From UHGV virus genome UHGV-0356033: a DNA stretch of 45,424 bases, one strand, 5' to 3'. Under the pieces are notes generated by a model. That model saw only the letters and a list, made by a program, of their open reading frames with translations, was not told where the DNA came from and did not search any database. A program made the translations under genes and the position numbers. This stretch comes from a virus. This document shows positions 6,216 to 38,636 of the stretch, piece after piece (position 1 is the first letter of the stretch; each line of letters opens with the position of its first letter).

Positions 6216-6489
6216 TGTCTACCGCCTTACGTAAATTGGATAACGTTTCTGCTTCAAGCAGGTCAATCCAGTAGCTGATAGCTTCCGTGTTTTCAGGAAG
6301 TTCGGAATGTACTGGCGCATACCCGTAACGTACTAATAGATTCGAGTAATACTCAGCGACCTTTAAACAAAAGGATTCCAGATCGGGAAACGGGTGAGTG
6401 AAGGCTTCACGAAATTCGGCCGCTGTTTCTAAATTAACACTTGCCAATCCTTCACTTAAGCGTTCCACAATCTCCGTTTGATAACGCAT
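6190..6489 (-). CDS. hypothetical protein (99 aa)
   Basis: ATG 6489-6487 with AAGGAG SD, 5-nt spacer. Confidence 0.55.
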   Translation of the reverse strand: MRYQTEIVERLSEGLASVNLETAAEFREAFTHPFPDLESFCLKVAEYYSNLLVRYGYAPVHSELPENTEAISYWIDLLEAETLSNLRKAVDNETRTSAA

Positions 6490-6533
6490 GATGACTCCTT
6501 AGGTCGGGTAGGGTTTACCCTACCCGAGCCTAT

Positions 6534-8030
6534 TTATTTCTTTTTCGTCAGGAACTTCGGTTCTAGTCCATCGACAGCCATACCCAGAATGGTACGTGCA
6601 GTCAGTGTACGTTTACCGCCTTTGGTTTCCTGGTCTTTAAACATCCAGTATTCTACCGTGTTGTCCAGAATTTCATTCCAGTCCCACATCTCGTCAATCA
6701 GTTTGTAAATCTCACCCATGCTGAGATGATACTTCATTTCAAGACGATGGTAGTTGTTTTGCATATACGCAATTGCCGCAGTGATTTCTAAAGCGCGACG
6801 TAAGCGGGCGTTATCAGAAATCATATCACGGATCGTCGTGCGTTGGAATTTCACACCAGGTAGAATATCCAGTTCTTTGATGGAACCGCCACTACCGCTT
6901 GATGTGAAACCAAAGTCTGACTTCTTCAGCGTGTCACTTAAATAGTGCCACAGGCTCAGGTGATATAGCAGACCCATTTCCTGAGAGAAGATCATCTGAA
7001 ATTTCACACCGGTGTGACCACCCTTCGCACGATACTGGGTAAAGGTGATAATCTTCAAGTCGTTTACCGACGCATTCATCGCTTTAGAACGTGACGTCGG
7101 ATAAAGTTCTTCGTTAACACCCGTCTGCGCGTTATAGCTCTGGTCTTTCTTCAATTCCCCTGATTTCGTCGCGACGATAAAAGAGTTTGTTAAAAAGCTA
7201 AGCTGACGGCGAGGAATACCTGCGAATTTTAAATCGTCGTTGGCGTCGTCGAGAATTTTTGCATTTGCTTTTTGAGCCTGTCGGCCACCCGCCATCGCTT
7301 TCCCAGAGTCATCGGCCATCTGTGCCACGAAGCCCATGTAAAAACCACCGCGTGCAAACGCAGACGGCCAGCGGCTCATCATATTCGATTTTTGCAGCGC
7401 ATCGTGGGCGTTTAGGATGTTCTGATCAGAATCCCCAATATCAGTTTTTGCGTGTTTGTCTTCCAGCGAACTGGAATGCCACTCTGACAGGGAGTCGATA
7501 GAATAAAGCCAGGGGTCCAGGATTTCTTTTAACTTACGACGAACTGGATCGGGGAACGGTGTTACGCGGGTTTTACCAGACATATACTGCTTGAAGCGTT
7601 TTTCAACTTCATCACGAATATAATCACTGTAATACTGTTCCCCGGGCATTACGTCAGAACCGACCAGGTTATAACGACCTTCGTGGATAAGTTCCAGTAC
7701 GGATGTTCCGTCGTCGATACCGTTGGCGTTCATGGCAGAGATGTACCCAGTTTCTAAACGATCGAGGGCAGCGGACACTTCTGTATCGTACTTAGAACCC
7801 CACTCTGCTTTATAACGTTGCAGGATTTGGAAGATACAGAAATCTAACAAGGTGGATTTAAAGGTGTTTCCGCGACCTGCGAAACCCATGATGTGGGCAA
7901 AACCACCGTTAAGGTAGTACAAACCATCTTCACCTTTTTCGTAGTTACCTAAGGCATGATCCATGATGGTGTAAACGTTAAAACGTGGACGAATTACTTC
8001 ACCGATAACTTGCTTAGTTGGGCCTGCCAT
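6534..8030 (-). CDS. hypothetical protein (498 aa)
   Basis: Long ORF; ATG 8030-8028 with GGAG SD; contains GFAGRGNTFKST segment that is only loosely P-loop-like, so no function called. Confidence 0.6.
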   Translation of the reverse strand: MAGPTKQVIGEVIRPRFNVYTIMDHALGNYEKGEDGLYYLNGGFAHIMGFAGRGNTFKSTLLDFCIFQILQRYKAEWGSKYDTEVSAALDRLETGYISAMNANGIDDGTSVLELIHEGRYNLVGSDVMPGEQYYSDYIRDEVEKRFKQYMSGKTRVTPFPDPVRRKLKEILDPWLYSIDSLSEWHSSSLEDKHAKTDIGDSDQNILNAHDALQKSNMMSRWPSAFARGGFYMGFVAQMADDSGKAMAGGRQAQKANAKILDDANDDLKFAGIPRRQLSFLTNSFIVATKSGELKKDQSYNAQTGVNEELYPTSRSKAMNASVNDLKIITFTQYRAKGGHTGVKFQMIFSQEMGLLYHLSLWHYLSDTLKKSDFGFTSSGSGGSIKELDILPGVKFQRTTIRDMISDNARLRRALEITAAIAYMQNNYHRLEMKYHLSMGEIYKLIDEMWDWNEILDNTVEYWMFKDQETKGGKRTLTARTILGMAVDGLEPKFLTKKK

Positions 8031-29755: not shown

Positions 29756-30241
29756 TTAGTATTTAGATTGTTCTGCGTATTTCTTAACCAGGTAAGCGAA
29801 TTCAGCAACACCGATATCACCGAACCAAATCAGATAACCGGGGTCGATGTTGTAGTAATAACCGACAAGTTTCTTGGTGTGTGGGTTGTATAGCGTTACG
29901 ATATATTCCCAGCCACAAGCGTTAGCTTTACAACCGCCGCTTTCAATCCAGATTTTGTTGTTGATGTTTACCGGATACATGTTACCTCCAGGGCCATCCA
30001 TGTAACCTTTAGAGCCGAACATACCATCCAGTCCCACGCGGTCTAGTGTTTTATCAACAACGGCTTTAAACGACTTATCGGTATCGTACAAGTCGTTGAT
30101 GTTTGGGCACGCATTTGGCTGACCTTCCCAAGCGTTTCCATCACAGGTAAGCAATTCGTCTACGGAGGCCGCATCTACAGTTGGTGTGACACCGATAAAC
30201 AAGAAAACCAGAAAGAACATCAGTGTATGTAAACGTTTCAT
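29756..30241 (-). CDS. small secreted Cys-containing protein (161 aa)
   Basis: Signal peptide MKRLHTLMFFLVFLFIGVTPTVDA; AAGGAG SD. Confidence 0.55.
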   Translation of the reverse strand: MKRLHTLMFFLVFLFIGVTPTVDAASVDELLTCDGNAWEGQPNACPNINDLYDTDKSFKAVVDKTLDRVGLDGMFGSKGYMDGPGGNMYPVNINNKIWIESGGCKANACGWEYIVTLYNPHTKKLVGYYYNIDPGYLIWFGDIGVAEFAYLVKKYAEQSKY

Positions 30242-30259
30242 TGTAACTACTCCTTTAGA

Positions 30260-30652
30260 TTATTCGGCAGGACGATTTAAGGTAACGCGCCCGATTAATT
30301 CGGCGTTGTGAAAGAAGTCCACAGCGGTATAGTTACCAACTGATAGCGGATGGATACTAACTGACATTACTTTTGGTTGCTCGCAGGCAATATCCGTCAG
30401 ACGTTGGTAGACTTGTGCACGGGTGTCAGCAATGAGTAATCCCGTACACGTTTCACCACGCACTAAACGATAAACTTGCAGTTTACCGAAACTGCGCATT
30501 AACGTAGGCGTCTCATCCGGGTTGATAATCGGTGAGTCAGGAGCCGGTTCGTAATAGCGGACATCCGAATCACCGAAAGCATAAGTACCGGTAATACCGA
30601 CTGCACAGAAAATAATGATAGTATAAAGTATAGTTCTGATATTCATTTTCAC
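30260..30652 (-). CDS. small secreted protein (130 aa)
   Basis: N-terminal hydrophobic signal MKMNIRTILYTIIIFCAVGITGTYA; start (GTG 30652 or ATG 30646) uncertain. Confidence 0.45.
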   Translation of the reverse strand: MKMNIRTILYTIIIFCAVGITGTYAFGDSDVRYYEPAPDSPIINPDETPTLMRSFGKLQVYRLVRGETCTGLLIADTRAQVYQRLTDIACEQPKVMSVSIHPLSVGNYTAVDFFHNAELIGRVTLNRPAE

Positions 30653-30674
30653 GCACTCTAAAAAAGATTAATAT

Positions 30675-31136
30675 TTATTTGTTAGGACGGGTGTGTCCAC
30701 AGTTCTGGAAGAAAGTTTCAGACAGACGTTCGCCTTCTACGGTAAAGTTAGCGGCGTCGTTACCATTGATACTCACACTGAAAGTTTTGGCATTACCGAT
30801 GGCATTAACGAAAGCAACCCAAGCGCGTTCTGCTTTGTCACTACCGTCCACGGTAGGGATGTTATAGGTTTTGCCGTTTACGACAATATCGATCGTGTTA
30901 TCTTCAGCGTTAGTTGCACCTACGGGTTCACCGTAATACCAAACCATGCGACCGTAAAATTTGCGATTCGCAGTTTCAGTGTCACAGTTGATAGACAGTC
31001 CGTTTCCGGCGGTGTCTTCGATTTCGTAAACTGCCTGGCCAGGGTTTTGTATTTGTTCCCAGCTGTTGATAGCGGCGTGTGCGCTATTGAGGCCGAAAGT
31101 TAAAATGGTTATTAAGAAACTGATAAAGGTTTTCAT
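30675..31136 (-). CDS. small secreted protein (153 aa)
   Basis: Signal peptide MKTFISFLITILTFGLNSAHA; AAGGAG SD. Confidence 0.55.
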   Translation of the reverse strand: MKTFISFLITILTFGLNSAHAAINSWEQIQNPGQAVYEIEDTAGNGLSINCDTETANRKFYGRMVWYYGEPVGATNAEDNTIDIVVNGKTYNIPTVDGSDKAERAWVAFVNAIGNAKTFSVSINGNDAANFTVEGERLSETFFQNCGHTRPNK

Positions 31137-31182: not shown

Positions 31183-31554
31183 TTAAATAACTGTGTTGGG
31201 GAATGCTTTAATCTGTGTATAACTATCTCCGATACCTCTTATCATTTCCAGACGTTCTTCTGTAGAAAGGCTTTGGTTAATGTCTTTGTCGAGATTGAAC
31301 AGTGTCAAGAGTTTTGCAATTGCAACCGTCAGGTTGTCGGACAGCTCGTTGTTTTTACGCCATTCTTCGTTACGGAAAATAGAGATAAGGTCTTTCGCCT
31401 GGCCTTCAGCGTGTGGTTTGGCTAACTGCGCGTCACGCTGTTCGATAAGGTATGCTTCGTTGGTAAGTAAACGTTTCAGGTCTTCTGGGTTAGTGGCAGC
31501 GCGAGTAACGATCAGTAATACAACAAACGGGTCTTTAAATAATTCGTTTTTCAT
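31183..31554 (-). CDS. hypothetical protein (123 aa)
   Basis: ATG 31554 with AGGAGAA SD. Confidence 0.55.
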   Translation of the reverse strand: MKNELFKDPFVVLLIVTRAATNPEDLKRLLTNEAYLIEQRDAQLAKPHAEGQAKDLISIFRNEEWRKNNELSDNLTVAIAKLLTLFNLDKDINQSLSTEERLEMIRGIGDSYTQIKAFPNTVI

Positions 31555-31584: not shown

Positions 31585-31626
31585 GTGAGAGCTTTTGTAC
31601 TCTCACCTAAGTAATATATATCTGAA
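31585..31626. promoter_or_regulatory. conserved regulatory element copy 1: stem-loop plus 19-bp motif TAAGTAATATATATCTGAA
   Basis: Stem GTGAGAG/CTCTCAC (31585-31591/31600-31606) immediately followed by motif at 31608-31626; identical 19-mer recurs at 35894-35912. Confidence 0.4.
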
Positions 31627-31644
31627 ATTATTTTTAATATTAAC

Positions 31645-31679
31645 GAACAAAAAATAAAAGGTGGGGGTTTACCCCCACC
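31645..31679 (-). terminator. intrinsic terminator downstream of gene 31684..32262
   Basis: G/C stem GTGGGGG/CCCCCAC around 31660-31679; T-run on minus strand. Confidence 0.5.
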
Positions 31680-31683
31680 GATG

Positions 31684-32262
31684 TTATACATCGAACCGGT
31701 ACTGCCGGGAGTTAATGAGGAACTCGGTATTCAGCTCAATCCATTCGAGTAAATCACCCAACGGTAATCGGTTTGGGTTTTCTAACTCAATAGACGCTAC
31801 CGGATAAGAGTTTACTAATTCCGTAATTGCCTCAATACCCTCTTGCGTTCCATCGTCTTCTAAGGTGATTGTAAACGGCATATCGGCACGATCCGCATTA
31901 GGATTGTACAAACTGACTTTCGTTGCTTGGACAAACGCAGTCAGGTCGTCACGTATAATGCGTGTATCAGGCGCTAGAACTACCCAGAGATGTTGTCCTG
32001 GCTGGAGTTTACGTTTTGCGTAGTTTAAGAACGGATTAGCCGGTAAGCTTTCTAAACCACTGCAAATGTTCCGTAAATGAATCCCTCGTGGGTCTTTATA
32101 GTCCACGCTGAAGATTCCTACCGGTTCCTTCGCTGCCTGTTTTATCAGAAAGACCAATACCGTGTCCGCTCTTTCTGGTAAGGAAAGCTCTATTCCCTCA
32201 AGCTCCCCATCGACGAGGTTTTCCAACCAAACGTCTTTTCGCATTTCTATTAATCGGTACAC
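31684..32262 (-). CDS. hypothetical protein (about 186-192 aa)
   Basis: ORF; GTG 32262 with GAGGTGG SD, or ATG 32244. Confidence 0.5.
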   Translation of the reverse strand: MYRLIEMRKDVWLENLVDGELEGIELSLPERADTVLVFLIKQAAKEPVGIFSVDYKDPRGIHLRNICSGLESLPANPFLNYAKRKLQPGQHLWVVLAPDTRIIRDDLTAFVQATKVSLYNPNADRADMPFTITLEDDGTQEGIEAITELVNSYPVASIELENPNRLPLGDLLEWIELNTEFLINSRQYRFDV

Positions 32263-32274
32263 GGTACCACCTCA

Positions 32275-33048
32275 CTATTGATTAAGTTTTACATCGGCAA
32301 TAAACAGCAATTGTTTACCATGTTGCTGCACTTCTTTCCAACCCAGTTTCATAGCAGCGTCAACAACATCTAACATGCTGTAACGGGACATCAACGCGGT
32401 TGATTTTGTTCCTGACATTAAATAAAGTGGCTCATTAGGGCAACGGTCTCGAGCATCAGGAAGTTCTCGAATAACCGCTGAGCCTTCGGGTACGGTAACA
32501 ACATGAATCACGGTAAATGGTCTCTTGTGTGTTAAGTAGATACGGAACCCAACGTGTTCAGATTCATGAAAGATTTTCTTCACGACCACATCTTTCAGTG
32601 TCGTCTGAACATCATCCCCAGGTAATATCGTGGATTCACGAGAAACGAAACAACGACTATTTTCAATCGTGGAGAAATAATTACGTATCGGCAAACTGGC
32701 GTTATGATCGCGCAGTTTTTTGCTCAATAGATCGAAGTTCAGTTCTTTAACTTTTTCTAACCACTCTTTGGCTTGTTGAATGTAATAACTACCAACAGCG
32801 CGATAAGTTAATACCTTACCTGTGCTCACTTTCCAAAGCTTGATGCTTAGTGAATTTGGCTTATAGCGACGATACTCACCCTGCGTATGGTTGATGCGCT
32901 CGTAACGCTCTACATCATCAACTGGTGCAGATTCGACCGATTGTAATTGCAGCGTACGATCTAATCTATCGGCAAATAGTAGTGATGATAGCGGGCCTTC
33001 GATCATATACGGTTCGGTTTTAAAGATATCGTCTAAATGGACTTTCAT
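32275..33048 (-). CDS. paralogue-array member A (257 aa), C-terminal GW...QLLF motif
   Basis: ATG 33048 with AAGGAA SD; C-terminus KLGWKEVQQHGKQLLFIADV; N-terminus MKVHLDDIF. Confidence 0.6.
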   Translation of the reverse strand: MKVHLDDIFKTEPYMIEGPLSSLLFADRLDRTLQLQSVESAPVDDVERYERINHTQGEYRRYKPNSLSIKLWKVSTGKVLTYRAVGSYYIQQAKEWLEKVKELNFDLLSKKLRDHNASLPIRNYFSTIENSRCFVSRESTILPGDDVQTTLKDVVVKKIFHESEHVGFRIYLTHKRPFTVIHVVTVPEGSAVIRELPDARDRCPNEPLYLMSGTKSTALMSRYSMLDVVDAAMKLGWKEVQQHGKQLLFIADVKLNQ

Positions 33049-33061
33049 TTCTATTTCCTTC

Positions 33062-33089
33062 TTAACAAAAGCCGCGACTAAAGCGCGGC
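33062..33089 (-). terminator. intrinsic terminator downstream of gene 33116..34267
   Basis: Stem GCCGCG/CGCGGC (33071-33076/33084-33089); TTTTGTT on minus strand. Confidence 0.45.
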
Positions 33090-33115
33090 AGTTAGAGAAA
33101 GTGTATTTTCACTTA

Positions 33116-34267
33116 TTAGAGGTCAGCAACAAACAACAGCTGACTGCCGTATTTTTGCACGTCAGCCCAACCGTAGTCTTTCCCGATTATAGGTAGATGT
33201 AAAGCATCCAGTTTCTCGTCTTTTGCCTTTAGTTGCGCCATTAGCGCATTGGACGCCTCGGCACTGAGCAGTAATGCGGGTTCTTTTTCAGTACGTCCTT
33301 CTGCGGTCGGGAAGAAATCGTAATAGCTGCGAGTAGGTAAATCGACAGAAAAACTACGATTGCCTATTATGATGAAGAACGCAACTCCTTCACAGTTAGC
33401 ATCTACACTACACGACCACCCCGCCTCTGTTAAAAGGTCTTTTAACAGACACCACACTTTAAGTTGGTCCTTAGAAAGTGTACGGTAGATAGCAAGATGG
33501 TCAGGAAGTAAATGTACAGCCATAACCACGTTTTCAGATTTCTCGTCAAGCAACTCTGGATGTTGAATCGGGAACAATAATTCACTGATACCCACGTTAT
33601 CAATTTTGTTAACAAAATCAGTTAATTCATCTTTTAAGGTACGCACGGATTTTTCTCCTTCGACTTCAATAATCTGGTGGGGTTCGCCGCTAATTAAAAT
33701 GTGGTAAACGATGTCGTCGGTAGAACGGTAAGTGAGTTTGATAGCTTTATCACTTAACATTTCGTAGCGGAAGAAACTTTCGTACCAACTTGAGCCGAAA
33801 TCGTTTCGTGTAAGTTCCTGCTCAACTTTGATGGTTTTTGCTTCAAAGCCAATTAACCCGCTTAATAACGCGAGTTCTGGCTTAGTTAAAATAGCCGCAC
33901 CGTGAAAGGGCACTTTCTCAAGCTGAAAACATAAATTACTGACTTTACCACTTGGGAAGACCTTAAACATAATCTTCCGGTTGCTACTCTTTTCTCTAAC
34001 AACGAGTTTACGGTAATTTAGTCCACAATTTGAGTAAACCGCGAACTGGTAACCTTCAATTTCTTCATCGTAAGTACAGACATCGACAGGCGCGATAATC
34101 TCATCGTATTCACTAAGTACACAGCAGCCCAAGTTATAACCAAACAACTCGCGTTGTAATGAAGACTCGATGGTTAAGCTTGGTAGTGACCAAACCCGAT
34201 TATAGCATCTGTCCATCAATTCTTTTAGGATTTTGACATGTCCTGGTTTAGAAATAATATTTCGCAT
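33116..34267 (-). CDS. paralogue-array member B (383 aa), C-terminal GW...QLLF motif
   Basis: ATG 34267 with AAGGAGAG SD; C-terminus KDYGWADVQKYGSQLLFVADL. Confidence 0.6.
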   Translation of the reverse strand: MRNIISKPGHVKILKELMDRCYNRVWSLPSLTIESSLQRELFGYNLGCCVLSEYDEIIAPVDVCTYDEEIEGYQFAVYSNCGLNYRKLVVREKSSNRKIMFKVFPSGKVSNLCFQLEKVPFHGAAILTKPELALLSGLIGFEAKTIKVEQELTRNDFGSSWYESFFRYEMLSDKAIKLTYRSTDDIVYHILISGEPHQIIEVEGEKSVRTLKDELTDFVNKIDNVGISELLFPIQHPELLDEKSENVVMAVHLLPDHLAIYRTLSKDQLKVWCLLKDLLTEAGWSCSVDANCEGVAFFIIIGNRSFSVDLPTRSYYDFFPTAEGRTEKEPALLLSAEASNALMAQLKAKDEKLDALHLPIIGKDYGWADVQKYGSQLLFVADL

Positions 34268-34296
34268 TTTTACTCTCCTTTAGGGTTTTTCGTTAC

Positions 34297-34851
34297 TTAA
34301 GCAGGGTAAGCTAAGAACAACAACTGCTGGCCGAGTTTACGTACGGTATACCAACCGTGGGCTTTAGCGACCGCGATCAACGTTTCCCAGTCGTCAACAT
34401 CGCACTGCTCATTCCGAAGTCTTGTAAAGAGCGCCTCGGCTTCGCTTTGGTTTAATAACTTACCTGGATCGTCTGGGGTGCAATCAGTAGGGGTTGGAAA
34501 GAAAGCATACTGCCGCGCTAGGAGAAAATCGACCAGATACTTGGTGCTCTCTTTATAAACCAGCGTGGAAGTCTTCCCTTCGTGGAAGAAGCTACCTGTT
34601 TTCCAAACGCTATCTTTCAGTAAGCTCTGAAAGTAATCTGTAAAACCCGTTCTAAACGGGATATGGGTTTTACGTGTGATGTTGCGACGCAGCGGAGTTT
34701 CCTCTACAGCTTGTACACTTACCCCTACTATCATCGCACCTGGCTGAATAATGGTATTGGTCAGTACAGTATAAGGACGGACAAAGAAATGTTCGCCTAC
34801 GCCTTTTTCAAGGGTTTGGATAATTTCATTTTTCAGTTCAGTTTGAAACAT
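34297..34851 (-). CDS. paralogue-array member C (184 aa), C-terminal GW...QLLF motif
   Basis: ATG 34851 with AAGGAGAA SD; C-terminus KAHGWYTVRKLGQQLLFLAYPA. Confidence 0.6.
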   Translation of the reverse strand: MFQTELKNEIIQTLEKGVGEHFFVRPYTVLTNTIIQPGAMIVGVSVQAVEETPLRRNITRKTHIPFRTGFTDYFQSLLKDSVWKTGSFFHEGKTSTLVYKESTKYLVDFLLARQYAFFPTPTDCTPDDPGKLLNQSEAEALFTRLRNEQCDVDDWETLIAVAKAHGWYTVRKLGQQLLFLAYPA

Positions 34852-34880
34852 GGTATATTCTCCTTTTTCGGTTTTCTTAA

Positions 34881-35618
34881 TTACGCGGTTTTAATTAGCA
34901 GCAGATAGTCTTTCGTAATCTCAGCACAACTCCACCCTCTCATCGTGGCGATTTTACGAAGATCGATTTTCTCGTGATATCTCAATAAGGGATCGTCCGG
35001 GTTAATTTCAACCAGGTGGGTGGCTTTAGAAATCGTTTCTACATCAGGGATCTGTTTTGCTAAGTCTGATGCAATCAGTTCAATAACGCGGTATCCATTT
35101 AATACAGAAACATAAATGCGTAAACCATATAGCGTGCCCTCGTCTTCTAATGGACAAAGATCGATGCCAGGTCCAAGCAGTGATAACTCGACGTTATCGG
35201 GAAGGTTTTCTGCATTTCGGAGTAACCCTATCCCATTTCTAAACAGAGGGAAGTAAGAGAATAGTGGTGGTAAAGCCCAACCGTTCCCAATAAGCACATC
35301 AGCGATACTAGTAGGTGTGTTCGCAAGAAGACGAATGTGGTCAGCCACAACTTCAAGTTCGGCGTCACTGATCAACTTATAGATTAACATGACACTGGTT
35401 TCGGTATTAATAACAAAGAAGACGCGGTTGGCGTAACTACCTATCGTGTATTCGTCAATCATACGGTCGATAACGTCACTGTCTGGATAATCTTCAGGTT
35501 TAATTGTTCCGGCGTCGATTAACTTAGCAGGTTGCGATTGTTTTATTAGTTCGTTAACCACCGTAGAAGAAAGTTCTAAACTGGTGTTAGTAAAGATATC
35601 GTCTAATAATTCTCTCAT
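34881..35618 (-). CDS. paralogue-array member D (245 aa), divergent C-terminal motif
   Basis: ATG 35618; N-terminus MRELLDDIF matches member A; C-terminus RGWSCAEITKDYLLLIKTA is a degenerate version of the motif. Confidence 0.5.
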   Translation of the reverse strand: MRELLDDIFTNTSLELSSTVVNELIKQSQPAKLIDAGTIKPEDYPDSDVIDRMIDEYTIGSYANRVFFVINTETSVMLIYKLISDAELEVVADHIRLLANTPTSIADVLIGNGWALPPLFSYFPLFRNGIGLLRNAENLPDNVELSLLGPGIDLCPLEDEGTLYGLRIYVSVLNGYRVIELIASDLAKQIPDVETISKATHLVEINPDDPLLRYHEKIDLRKIATMRGWSCAEITKDYLLLIKTA

Positions 35619-35714
35619 GATTTACTCGCTAATCCCAATGAAGGGAAGGCTATTATTATGGATTGTAAAAGAGGTATAAGGAAGTCACTACGTTCCTCTG
35701 GGAAGAGTATGTCG

Positions 35715-35773
35715 GTATACTCCGTATACCTCCGCTATTTATATCCGTATACATAATGCCCCCTACCCCCTAC
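35715..35773. repeat. three TC(C/G)GTATAC palindrome-containing repeats plus tandem CCCCTAC x2
   Basis: GTATAC at 35715-35720, 35724-35729 and 35747-35752; CCCCTAC at 35760-35766 and 35767-35773; inside a 320-bp divergent intergenic region. Confidence 0.5.
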
Positions 35774-35860
35774 CGGTATCCCGAGTAGCAGAATAAAGGG
35801 GCAGACTGTAAAATTTTAGTAACCTTTAACGAAAGGTACTAAAAGGATAACGTGCCCGTA

Positions 35861-35912
35861 GGGACTGAACTGGTACTTCAGTCCCTATTCACTTAAGTAA
35901 TATATATCTGAA
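35861..35912. promoter_or_regulatory. conserved regulatory element copy 2: stem-loop plus 19-bp motif, 28 bp upstream of gene 35940
   Basis: Stem GGGACTGAA/TTCAGTCCC (35861-35869/35877-35885) followed by TTCACT then TAAGTAATATATATCTGAA at 35894-35912. Confidence 0.45.
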
Positions 35913-35939: not shown

Positions 35940-36905
35940 ATGGAGAAATCCAGTGTTGATTTTTTCTCAATTGGTATCGTCGCGGAAGACAAACCCCGTG
36001 GTACAGATCGGGTAAAAGTGATACCAATTGAAACCAACTTTGCTAACCCTACCGTGGTGCAATCTGTTTCTTCAGCAACTGAAAAGACACACGAAACATC
36101 TGGTGCAACAGATAACCTAACCATTAAGACGGGAAACACGATAACGGCAAAGTGGTGGAAGTTTAACTCCAACCGAATTAATTCCCCTGACGTTAAACGA
36201 GAAGACTACGTTATCTTGTTACGTTTGGGGAAAACCGATATTTATTTTTGGATTGATCTGAACTTCGCTAACGTTAAGCGATTAGAAGATGCGGTTTATG
36301 CGTGGTCGGCTGACCCTGAAAACCAAATGGCGGATGACCTGTCGAACGCGTATGTGTTGAATGTCTCGACAATTGACAAACATATCACGCTAAGAACAAG
36401 TATGGTAAACGGCGAGAAAGCGGCGTGGTTGTTTCAGTTTGATAATGCAAACGGTACGTGGCAGTGTGTTGACCATAAAGGAAACAAGTATTACATTAAC
36501 TCGGTGGAAGACGATTTAGGTTTTGAGAATGCGATGCTTTCAAAAGTGAACATCAACAAAGAAGATGCGTTCATTTATTCAAAGCGTTCTATTAACCTGG
36601 AAACGAAAACGATTAATGAAAAATGTGAAGTCCGCAATACAGAAGCAGCGAAATCCGTTACGTTTAAAACACAAACCTGGTTAACGGAAGCGGGAAGTTC
36701 GACAACGTTTAAAACGCCGAACTTTAAACAAGAAGGGAAGGAAGCGATGTTCACCGGTAATTTGGAAGTCGCTAAGAACTTCAAATACGGTGGTACGGGT
36801 GAAGGTGTGGGTGTCTTTACGGTTAAAGATGCCATTATTTCCGGTATTACCTTTAGCGTTCACATTCACCAAGGTAAACATGGCCCGACATCACCTCCGC
36901 AGTAA
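35940..36905 (+). CDS. hypothetical protein (321 aa), possibly virion or tail associated
   Basis: ATG 35940 with AAGGAA SD; sits at head of rightward tail-fibre region; beta-rich T/N/K composition; function not recognised. Confidence 0.55.
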   Translation: MEKSSVDFFSIGIVAEDKPRGTDRVKVIPIETNFANPTVVQSVSSATEKTHETSGATDNLTIKTGNTITAKWWKFNSNRINSPDVKREDYVILLRLGKTDIYFWIDLNFANVKRLEDAVYAWSADPENQMADDLSNAYVLNVSTIDKHITLRTSMVNGEKAAWLFQFDNANGTWQCVDHKGNKYYINSVEDDLGFENAMLSKVNINKEDAFIYSKRSINLETKTINEKCEVRNTEAAKSVTFKTQTWLTEAGSSTTFKTPNFKQEGKEAMFTGNLEVAKNFKYGGTGEGVGVFTVKDAIISGITFSVHIHQGKHGPTSPPQ

Positions 36906-37323: not shown

Positions 37324-37383
37324 GAAAAAAAAAAACGTGCTACTCCTACCCTCTTAGAGGGTAGGAGGTTACTTTATTTTTTT
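37324..37383. terminator. bidirectional intrinsic terminator
   Basis: A10 run, then palindrome CCTACCCTCT/AGAGGGTAGG (37345-37365), then TTACTTTATTTTTTT; serves DUF1471 gene and convergent gene 37374..38636. Confidence 0.65.
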
Positions 37384-38636
37384 CGTGCTCTAAAGCGATG
37401 CATTTCTAAATACACTTTTTCCCAGGGACCGAATGGACCGACGATTGCTTGCGCGTCGTTAATCTTCTTCTGATTATACCACCGGGCTTCACGAAAGACG
37501 TAGTTTTGACTGTCGAACTCCGTGGTGTTAAATACCCACTCACCCTCCTCCCATGTAGGCCAATAGCCCACCGTCTTTCCGAAGCGATTATTTAAGTACC
37601 CTAATGGTTTTTCAGAATCAGGATCGCTAGGGTCCTTGAGATAACAACGTCCCCAAACTGCGTTATGTGATACACCCACAACCTCTTCTTCTAAATACGG
37701 ATTATCTACCGTAAAGATAAACGAAGACTCGTGGAGTAAAAGTGCCTTTAATGTTTCGGGGTTGCGAATACGTTGGACATTAGTAGGTGTTGATAAATCC
37801 CCCACACCGATGGCGTCCCAGTCGTAATAGCGACGGGTTTCCAGAACGGTCCGTGCAAGATCAAAATTCGGTAAAGAAATCATGATCGCACGGTCGGAGA
37901 AATAACCGCCAGGAGGCAACCAACGTAACAGTCCACCGATGACGAAACCCACCGTTTTTCCCGTGATAGATTCGGGCAGCGAAATCATTAACGTGGAGTA
38001 ATAGTCACGTGTAGTATCGAGCTTGTTTAGGGTAAGGTTGGCAATGGGGTAAGTTTTAACATTCCCTAACTGACCAAAAACCATACAGCCGATATCTGGC
38101 GTACAGGCTCTTCGTACGATTTTACCGGCCCCGGGTAATCGGACACCTACGGTATCTGTCTGGTGCGGTACCCATTGACCGTTAATGTTGTACAGTACAC
38201 TATTACGGTATTTGTCCTTCCACTTGTCCTCACAAACGATGACAACGTCATCAGCATCGTCTAAGCTGAAATCTTGACTGTGGTGGTACCCAGGCGGACA
38301 CAGATATGTTTCAACGGGTACGTCAGCATTAATCGATTGGTAATGTGCCCAACTGAATTCGAGTTTCGGCAATCCGGCTTTTAGAGTAGGGATGACGTTT
38401 CCGGCTTTTTCATTTAACCAATCTTGTAAAGTGTCTGTTCGGTTTTGTAGTTCGGCAAGATGGTATTGGCTGACTAGCGTATAGTCTTTACCAAGTGCAC
38501 TTAAACCGATCTCAAAGGTGTGGTAGTCTGAACACAACGTATTTAAGGGTTGCGTGACATCGATGGCTCCCCAGGTACGGGACTCTCGAGAGAAGCCAAA
38601 AGCGCTGTCGGGCCGCACTTGATAAGCAGTAGTCAC
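37374..38636 (-). CDS. hypothetical protein (420 aa), GTG start
   Basis: Long minus-strand ORF between plus-strand tail genes; no ATG near 5' end; GTG 38636 with AGAGGA SD. Confidence 0.5.
   Translation of the reverse strand: MTTAYQVRPDSAFGFSRESRTWGAIDVTQPLNTLCSDYHTFEIGLSALGKDYTLVSQYHLAELQNRTDTLQDWLNEKAGNVIPTLKAGLPKLEFSWAHYQSINADVPVETYLCPPGYHHSQDFSLDDADDVVIVCEDKWKDKYRNSVLYNINGQWVPHQTDTVGVRLPGAGKIVRRACTPDIGCMVFGQLGNVKTYPIANLTLNKLDTTRDYYSTLMISLPESITGKTVGFVIGGLLRWLPPGGYFSDRAIMISLPNFDLARTVLETRRYYDWDAIGVGDLSTPTNVQRIRNPETLKALLLHESSFIFTVDNPYLEEEVVGVSHNAVWGRCYLKDPSDPDSEKPLGYLNNRFGKTVGYWPTWEEGEWVFNTTEFDSQNYVFREARWYNQKKINDAQAIVGPFGPWEKVYLEMHRFRARKK

Follow-up and report, generated by a model that had tools for sequence, protein, structure and literature searches.

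The window analysed here, a stretch of 45,424 nucleotides (nt) from the viral genome UHGV-0356033, carries four successive open reading frames (ORFs) on its minus strand, termed genes A to D, which a first-pass annotation made from the sequence alone had singled out as a tandem array of paralogues. The lengths and positions that it gave proved exact: D (34881-35618, 245 amino acids (aa), acidic, isoelectric point (pI) 4.5) is the first gene of the array and is followed by C (34297-34851, 184 aa), B (33116-34267, 383 aa) and A (32275-33048, 257 aa, basic, pI 8.9). All four products are predicted to be soluble, differ in charge and contain no hydrophobic or membrane segments. The downstream neighbour, gene E (31684-32262, minus strand, 192 aa), begins 12 nt past the end of A, is a homologue of gp177 of Salmonella phage SPN3US (PHROG 20879 at 3.8e-33; 32% identity to gp177), is 90-99% conserved in related phages and lies outside the family. 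As set out below, the array is a lineage-specific tandem expansion, to three or four copies, of a normally single SPN3US-type gene; A, B and C end in a common folded domain, and D counts as a degenerate family member.

The first-pass annotation had proposed that the four proteins end in a common tail of about 20 residues, degenerate in D. For A, B and C, the similarity is well beyond chance. BLASTP aligned A with B over 65 residues (3e-10), B with C over 108 residues (2e-10) and A with C over 64 residues (8e-7), and the ungapped 25-residue tails of the three proteins scored far above shuffled controls (z = 7.7-10.4; 0 of 2000 shuffles reached the observed score), whereas the tail of D, compared on its own, gave P = 0.03-0.19 and was not significant. 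A hidden Markov model (HMM) of the domain, built from 23 family sequences, recovered A (3.4e-24, residues 191-253), B (7.5e-25) and C (2.7e-24, residues 112-182), values that are partly circular given that A, B and C were among its seeds; D was not a seed, and its score against the same model was not significant (E = 0.38). E and every other ORF in the window apart from A-C likewise gave no match to this model. D is nevertheless linked to the family by a BLASTP alignment with A over 133 residues (8e-4) and by a profile-profile comparison that placed its tail in register with the family profile (E = 8.7e-5, 27 columns). Furthermore, PHROG models matched the last 60-90 residues of A and B at 1.7e-9 to 5e-3; C had no PHROG match and links to B by BLASTP (2e-10) and by profile comparison (1.8e-12).

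The shared element is considerably larger than the short tag initially envisaged: it is a folded domain of 65-70 residues, 85-110 residues are common to A and B and to B and C, and stand-alone forms of 72-84 aa exist. On the minus strand of the window, the domain occupies residues 191-257 of A (32278-32478), where the models of PHROG 26772, 33648, 24489 and 18480 find their only match in this protein, residues 312-383 of B (33119-33334), where the structural model has a predicted local distance difference test (pLDDT) score of 86-94, and residues 112-184 of C (34300-34518). The corresponding module of D spans residues 180-245 (34884-35081). The domain starts at a conserved loop, [FIL]P-D-x-x-D-R-[ST]-x-x-[ED]-P-x-x-L-[LM]-S; the D module retains the IP[DE], GW and LL[LI] motifs and has lost the DR..EP..L[LM]S motif. 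AlphaFold2 models of A (pLDDT 82.6, predicted template modelling score 0.69) and B (pLDDT 78.9) present the same order of elements, in which the loop is followed by a short strand, two helices and a beta-hairpin bearing GW...G-x-QLLF; these lie at residues 208-211 (strand), 213-222 and 225-234 (helices) and 239-250 (hairpin) in A, and at 331-334, 336-349 and 355-364, and 367-381 in B. This strand-helix-helix-strand-strand order was read from the two whole-protein models. The conserved loop was also considered as a site for the prohead protease; phiKZ-type proteases cut at S/A/G-x-E, and on inspection the loop sequences do not fit this pattern.

Relatives of the domain are few. A HMMER search of 1.84 billion representative sequences returned only about 20 clusters, in proteins of 72-412 aa in which the domain always forms the extreme C-terminus; the search profile retained all 375 columns instead of the shared region alone, which possibly reduced its sensitivity for distant stand-alone domains. 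Among Derbicus-, CR5- and Phobos-type phages, the domain is almost invariant and the bodies (129-356 aa) vary greatly in both size and sequence, and in every orthologue group the domain is more conserved than the body (for B, 0.82 versus 0.65). Three proteins of 72-84 aa consist of the domain only, each starting at the FPD loop: the first is encoded by a small phage or prophage, between the genes for a DNA methyltransferase and an Ant/Bro-N protein, the second after a DnaB-like helicase gene on a separate contig, and the third near a T4-type RNA ligase gene. The existence of such forms argues that the domain has a function of its own, since a pure tag without cargo would be pointless. The domain profile matched nothing among PDB sequences or in Pfam, and A-D gave no hit above threshold in Pfam, NCBIfam or PADLOC, with sub-threshold chance matches only. 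In structure searches against solved structures, in which the domain was compared within the whole models, every score fell below the meaningful threshold, and Foldseek against predicted viral structures returned only uncharacterised members of the gp175 family.

With regard to the bodies, which had been regarded as largely unrelated, the comparison overturned the initial description. C aligns over its whole length (residues 5-181) with residues 210-381 of B (profile comparison, 167 columns, E = 1.8e-12), so that C is the equivalent of the C-terminal half of B, and residues 166-253 of A align with residues 293-383 of B (E = 6.8e-11). The end-to-end alignment of D with A is weak (E = 1.3e-4, 237 columns, probability 54%). 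When 33 alleles of A and D were aligned with MAFFT, they proved collinear throughout with invariant anchors, among them the N-terminal LDDIF motif that the first-pass annotation had noticed in both proteins and that is invariant in all 33. We count D, a divergent full-length paralogue of A, as a family member on the basis of this weak end-to-end alignment together with the in-register match of its tail to the family profile. B consists of two modules, an N-terminal one (residues 1 to about 200) and a C-like one (about 210-383); a collinear but non-significant alignment (E = 0.08-0.14) hints that its N-terminal module may be related to the body of A and D. Sequence comparison thus sorts the family into three kinds of protein: the A-like A and D, the two-module B, and C, which corresponds to the second module of B.

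To place the array among known phages, we compared the window with GenBank phage genomes and found, at the DNA level, a single 39-bp motif and otherwise no close relative; the motif is a perfect match to phiEaH2 and Stratton and a 97% match to Asesino. The protein encoded at 35940-36905, a homologue of the SPN3US baseplate protein gp173, has 73% identity to its counterparts in the Erwinia phages phiEaH2 and Stratton and 63% to that of SPN3US. The window also encodes UvsX-like, RNase H and SbcC-like proteins as well as large virion proteins. From these baseplate identities and this gene content, we infer that the window derives from an enterobacterial jumbo phage that is uncatalogued and belongs to the SPN3US supergroup. 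Many sequencing runs of Salmonella, Shigella and E. coli contain near-complete copies of this phage, of about 222-225 kb, and two copies have been deposited as circular 'plasmids', from E. coli 98232 (NZ_CP173450.1) and Enterobacter ludwigii (NZ_CP134650.1). Both deposits, the former from urine and the latter from a gull cloaca, form part of complete genomes and are recorded there as non-mobilizable, at about 222 kb.

The wider supergroup normally carries one copy of the domain. Searching 50,697 phage records with the domain by tblastn identified 58 genomes with one copy each, all of them SPN3US-supergroup jumbo phages except for one Shewanella phage. Its map position is similar across the Enterobacteriaceae phages. 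Synteny proper was examined in SPN3US and phiEaH2, whose genes, gp175 (412 aa) and gp097 (223 aa), respectively, are each flanked by the baseplate gene on one side and the gp177 homologue on the other. The array occupies the same place, divergent from the gp173-homologous baseplate gene and upstream of the gp177 homologue, and this order recurs at the loci of six close relatives (L004-L009). A adjoins the gp177 homologue E and is the best match of gp175, and is therefore the positional orthologue of gp175, with B, C and D as additions. Four genes are present in L004-L006, L009 and the E. coli 98232 phage, three, lacking D, in L007, L008 and the Enterobacter phage, and one in each of L010-L016; no other sampled locus has more than one copy. 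The window, with three clear copies plus D, is thus unlike the single-copy gp175 family. Sequence matches place A, B and C in this family (PHROGs 33648, 26772, 24489 and 18480, all of unknown function), and this membership explains the origin of the array and not its role. Table S1 of Thomas et al. 2016 (PMC5105663) lists gp175 homologues in PhiEaH2 and CR5 only and none in phiKZ. A tblastn search of GenBank phages with B found no match, the bodies being too divergent, and a single-sequence scan of viral contigs with the domain returned known isolates only.

The immediate surroundings of the orthologous genes differ in content. The gp175-gp176-gp177 trio is kept in SPN3US (gp176 at 6283-6864 of locus L001) and phiEaH2, and a 2-kb contig (L013) contains three genes whose sizes (214, 193 and 186 aa) match; gp176 has been lost from the window lineage, and A thus directly abuts the gp177 homologue. 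SPN3US gp174, gp176, gp178 and gp179 are unrelated to the family and are not found in the window.

Consistent with the idea of a diversifying paralogue family with a conserved C-terminal module, which the first-pass annotation had put forward, copy number varies between four, three and one among relatives and the alleles are mosaic. Relative to the window, D, C, B and A of L004 are 72%, 98%, 96% and 97% identical, within flanking genes of 96-100% identity. The corresponding values in L005 are 97%, 43%, 74% and 80% (flanks mostly 77-95%, baseplate gene 93%), and in L007, which lacks D, they are 77%, 42% and 92% for C, B and A (flanks mostly 76-93%, baseplate gene 93%). C retains only 43-47% identity in relatives with flanking genes of 90-97% identity; A is the most conserved member (80-97%), and the 84 alleles of D range from 48% to 99%. 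A sliding nucleotide comparison revealed sharp block boundaries. Against L004, the body of D alone is replaced and identity resumes at its C-terminal module, and against L005, L006 and L009, identity within B amounts to at least 95% in the N-terminal module and 40-70% in the C-terminal one. The breakpoint in B coincides with the linker between its two modules (residues about 201-208; 33644-33667, minus strand), a low-confidence part of the model (pLDDT below 50), and across B orthologues two types of N-terminal module are combined with two types of C-terminal module. The alleles are therefore mosaics with breakpoints at domain boundaries, and phage copies from Salmonella, E. coli and Enterobacter carry different ones.

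The tempo of this divergence was estimated from the ratio of nonsynonymous to synonymous substitution rates (dN/dS; Nei-Gojobori), which was 0.02-0.06 for the baseplate gene and about 0.1 for divergent pairs of E (0.29 for the near-identical L004 pair). Within the array, the ratio was 0.11-0.17 for A, 0.06-0.20 for C, 0.26-0.36 for B and 0.10-0.36 for D, the last two being the fastest. These values indicate that all four are live genes under purifying selection. They bear on the notion that the copies are recent duplicates that drift without distinct function or decay, in which case the common C-terminus would reflect shared ancestry only. The raised dN/dS of B and D, the degenerate motif of D and the absence of D from some lineages would fit such decay; however, the four ORFs are intact in dozens to hundreds of alleles down to 42-48% identity, dN/dS is 0.06-0.36 throughout, and the domain is conserved across phage genera, and we accordingly regard drift as a most improbable account.

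The array is preceded by a candidate promoter. Between the baseplate gene and D, the minus strand carries the motif TTCAGATATATATTACTTAAGTGA (35889-35912) followed by a hairpin (35860-35886), and the motif is kept at the same position in L004-L009. A second copy (31603-31627, minus strand), which is the 39-bp match to phiEaH2 and Stratton described above, marks the start of the next leftward unit. Across NZ_CP173450.1 (loci L019-L023), the motif takes the form TCAGATA[T/G]AT[A/T]TTA[C/T]..GTGAG and is followed by a hairpin. This complete 222-kb relative contains ten matches to the motif, nine of which have the extended consensus and the hairpin; by the coding-sequence tables, each of the nine lies between genes, has the orientation of the gene that follows it and points into a leftward block. 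The window motif agrees with the predicted early-promoter consensus of phiKZ (TATATTAC) and of OBP and N1M2 (TTTCARRYAKATATTATYWAAGTG) (PMC7058600), and it fits the general rule that early promoters used by the virion RNA polymerase can be recognised by an AT-rich motif near position -10 (PMC7598289). Judging from these resemblances, the motif copies probably represent the early-promoter set of the window phage, and D-C-B is predicted to be transcribed early. Two strong hairpins on the minus strand that resemble intrinsic terminators would divide the leftward genes: one between B and A (33071-33089; GCCGCG..CGCGGC followed by TTTTGTT), and one after E (31660-31679; GGTGGGGG..CCCCCACC followed by TTTTATTTTT), at the end of the A-E unit.

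The 5' leader of the array, which separates the promoter-like motif from D, contains a nearly invariant non-coding block (35676-35812, minus strand) that we compared in the window, L004, L005, L009 and L007. Almost all of its roughly 140 columns are invariant, although the adjacent genes differ by up to 57% at the protein level. It contains a GGGGG-ATG start with a possible ORF of 32 codons (MYTDINSGGIRSIPTY...) and a GGTATAC-GGA-GTATACC hairpin, and Rfam gave no match on the locus including this block; it could be a leader RNA, encode a small protein or provide the left homology arm for cassette exchange. L005, L009 and L007 have about 100 nt more between the promoter hairpin and the leader block, with a small ORF (MSTEKKSGLDEVIELFKRYNP...) that is not found in the window or L004. 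At the same position, SPN3US and phiEaH2 carry a 105-aa gene (gp174 and gp096, respectively) that has no homologue in the window.

We then considered whether the proteins belong to the phage particle, as a packaging signal at their C-terminus would imply. Table S4 of Thomas et al. 2016 (PMC5105663) lists 83 proteins in purified SPN3US particles; gp167-171 and gp173 are present, gp173 with 4-8 spectra, the next protein listed is gp193, and gp175 is absent. Further SPN3US proteomics supplements contain no entry for gp175 either. The absence of gp175, set beside the detection of the adjacent baseplate proteins, speaks against the packaging signal that the first-pass annotation had offered as one possible role, and it disfavours a structural role in general. 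In a structural reading, the proteins would be host-recognition adaptors attached to the baseplate, or would be packaged and ejected, with the C-terminus as the anchor. The position of the array, which directly adjoins the gp173-homologous baseplate gene (35940-36905, on the strand opposite to the array) and lies near the gp171 homologue (37374-38636), is suggestive of such adaptors, and hypervariability with host-correlated alleles is typical of receptor-binding proteins. Nevertheless, gp175 is missing from the particle proteome in which gp173 is seen, the array lies on the opposite strand behind an early-type promoter motif, its products are small globular alpha/beta proteins without fibre-like repeats, and a stand-alone domain is encoded beside a methyltransferase gene and an anti-repressor gene in a small phage. 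Moreover, tail-fibre anchors usually have the opposite polarity to a conserved C-terminal end. A structural or particle-associated role is thus very unlikely.

Collectively, four observations lead us to infer that the proteins act early and outside the virion, namely the promoter-like motif, the UvsX, RNase H and SbcC genes in the leftward block, the absence of gp175 from particles and the neighbours of the stand-alone domains. The array thus lies behind a motif resembling predicted early promoters and within a non-structural block. We favour, with a probability of roughly 0.4, the reading that A-D are early, non-virion, modular accessory proteins whose C-terminal domain binds one conserved partner and whose exchangeable bodies adapt to variable factors of the host or of competitors. 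Under this model, the virion RNA polymerase would transcribe the array early, with D-C-B as one unit and a terminator before A-E, and the products would act inside the infected cell and not in the particle. The conserved domain would be the constant half of a modular adaptor that binds one conserved partner, either a host or a phage molecule. The bodies diverge rapidly and are swapped among phages by recombination at module boundaries; their targets would be variable ones, for instance factors of the host, proteins of its defence or competitors, and duplication would give one phage several specificities together. The four genes are reasonable candidates in a search for host-adaptation or anti-defence genes. 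For most jumbo-phage early genes no role is known, and host-takeover and anti-defence functions have been traced time and again to hypervariable early loci.

Several points weigh against this adaptor model. No member of the family has a known partner, activity or phenotype, and the literature offers nothing on the function of SPN3US gp175, mentions of 'gp175' referring to phiKZ or PhiPA3 proteins. Early timing is supported by the consensus motif alone, SPN3US and phiEaH2 have no such motif directly upstream of their copy, and the 280-nt leader together with the terminator between B and A leaves the expression of A uncertain. Absence from the virion is negative evidence that comes from a different phage, SPN3US. 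Gene-wide dN/dS is below 1 and gives no direct signal of positive selection, and D largely lacks the conserved motif, so that a shared partner perhaps does not apply to it. Finally, the stand-alone domains agree no less well with a domain that carries the activity than with one that serves for docking.

This last point introduces the main rival, which is doubtful in our assessment but is favoured by the stand-alone forms: the C-terminal domain would itself be active, for example as a small nucleic-acid-binding or inhibitor domain, the bodies would be regulatory or specificity add-ons, and the array would amount to several versions of one activity. Versions of 72-84 aa that begin exactly at the FPD loop in unrelated contexts are what such a model predicts, and the domain is the only part conserved across genera. 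Its strand-helix-helix-hairpin order also recalls that of a winged-helix core minus the first helix. The matches to solved structures, however, were below any meaningful threshold with none of this kind top-ranked, and the profile matched neither PDB sequences nor Pfam. Nor is the putative recognition helix basic, and in B, C and D the domain is acidic. An active domain furthermore leaves unexplained why the bodies are shuffled as cassettes with the domain held constant.

An extension of the adaptor model, which we consider unlikely, is that the domain is a self-sufficient, previously unrecognised phage domain that plugs into a conserved hub (a host machine, or the compartment or transcription apparatus of the phage itself) and serves as a handle for swapped sensor or inhibitor bodies, thereby constituting a recombination-driven counter-defence or host-range system with multiple specificities. 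If this were true, the array would be the most elaborate example of such a system.

The recurrence of the phage in bacterial assemblies raises a further alternative. The circular deposits of about 222 kb and the recurrent contigs of about 225 kb in isolate sequencing runs suggest that members of this phage group, generally held to be lytic, can persist in a carrier state or by pseudolysogeny, and the array might serve this plasmid-like state through superinfection exclusion or action against competing phages or mobile elements, diversifying in the course of conflict between phages rather than through counter-defence against the host. Copies of about 222-225 kb in many Salmonella, Shigella, E. 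coli and Enterobacter assemblies, including the two circular 'plasmids', would accord with carriage, as would the hypervariability of the locus and the presence of three small, apparently secreted proteins among the neighbours. Yet the array proteins have no match among PADLOC defence models and are cytoplasmic without membrane segments, strictly lytic isolates such as SPN3US retain the gene, and the type of motif predicted for the virion RNA polymerase points to expression at infection and not during carriage; a role in the carried state is quite unlikely. The plasmid-like phage record also annotates an XRE-family regulator and a Dam-type methylase.

Comparison with known systems places the array nearest to its own family. 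The gp175/phiEaH2 gp097 family shares the C-terminal domain, the syntenic position and the combination of a variable body with a constant C-terminus; its members are single-copy genes, whereas the window lineage has three or four, including the two-module B, the half-length C and the degenerate D. Among more distant parallels, the Bro-N/KilA-N/Ant-type proteins of DNA viruses, reportedly described in the domain-shuffling literature of Iyer, Koonin and Aravind, combine a conserved domain with shuffled partners and are said to be often multi-copy. The array resembles them in pairing a small constant domain with exchangeable modules, in copy-number expansion and in its early or accessory location, and a Bro-N/Ant gene adjoins one stand-alone copy of the domain; it differs in that there is no sequence relationship, the constant domain is C-terminal and DNA binding is only putative.

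A signal shared by otherwise different proteins also characterises the capsid-targeting sequences of T4 internal proteins and the head propeptides of phiKZ and SPN3US, and the SPN3US head contains a tandem paralogue family of 17 members. Those packaging signals are N-terminal and cleaved, and the proteins that bear them are found in particles; the element in the array is a folded C-terminal domain, and its SPN3US homologue is absent from particles. Polymorphic toxins of the Rhs and contact-dependent inhibition (CDI) types likewise combine conserved with rapidly exchanged modules, recombine in a cassette-like manner and keep tandem spare copies. Their N-terminus is constant and their C-terminal toxin variable, however, which is the reverse of the arrangement in the array, and scans for families and defence systems together with hydrophobicity analysis found no immunity gene, toxin domain or secretion signal for the array, which shows no sequence relationship to these effectors.

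The locus offers a domain without relatives in Pfam or PDB sequences and without a credible match among solved structures, a series of one, three and four copies in otherwise near-identical phages, mapped breakpoints, and alleles that differ by the host of recovery (Salmonella, E. coli and Enterobacter). Whether host range or resistance to particular defence systems depends on copy number and body type would be open to a direct test; should the genes prove dispensable, the array would represent ordinary turnover of accessory genes.

The gene block around the array is itself polymorphic. Behind the second promoter-like motif, a 123-aa gene (31183-31554, minus strand) is present in the window, L004, L007 and L008 and absent from L005, L006 and L009. 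Further leftward, at 29756-31136 on the minus strand, lie three successive small genes (161, 130 and 153 aa) with hydrophobic N-termini resembling signal peptides; an orthologue of the 153-aa gene matches the Pfam family YfjT, and the 161-aa gene is just 65% conserved in relatives. On the far side of the baseplate gene, relatives carry a DUF1471 (YdgH/BhsA-like) gene, and together with the three small genes it looks like a set of secreted accessory proteins near the array.

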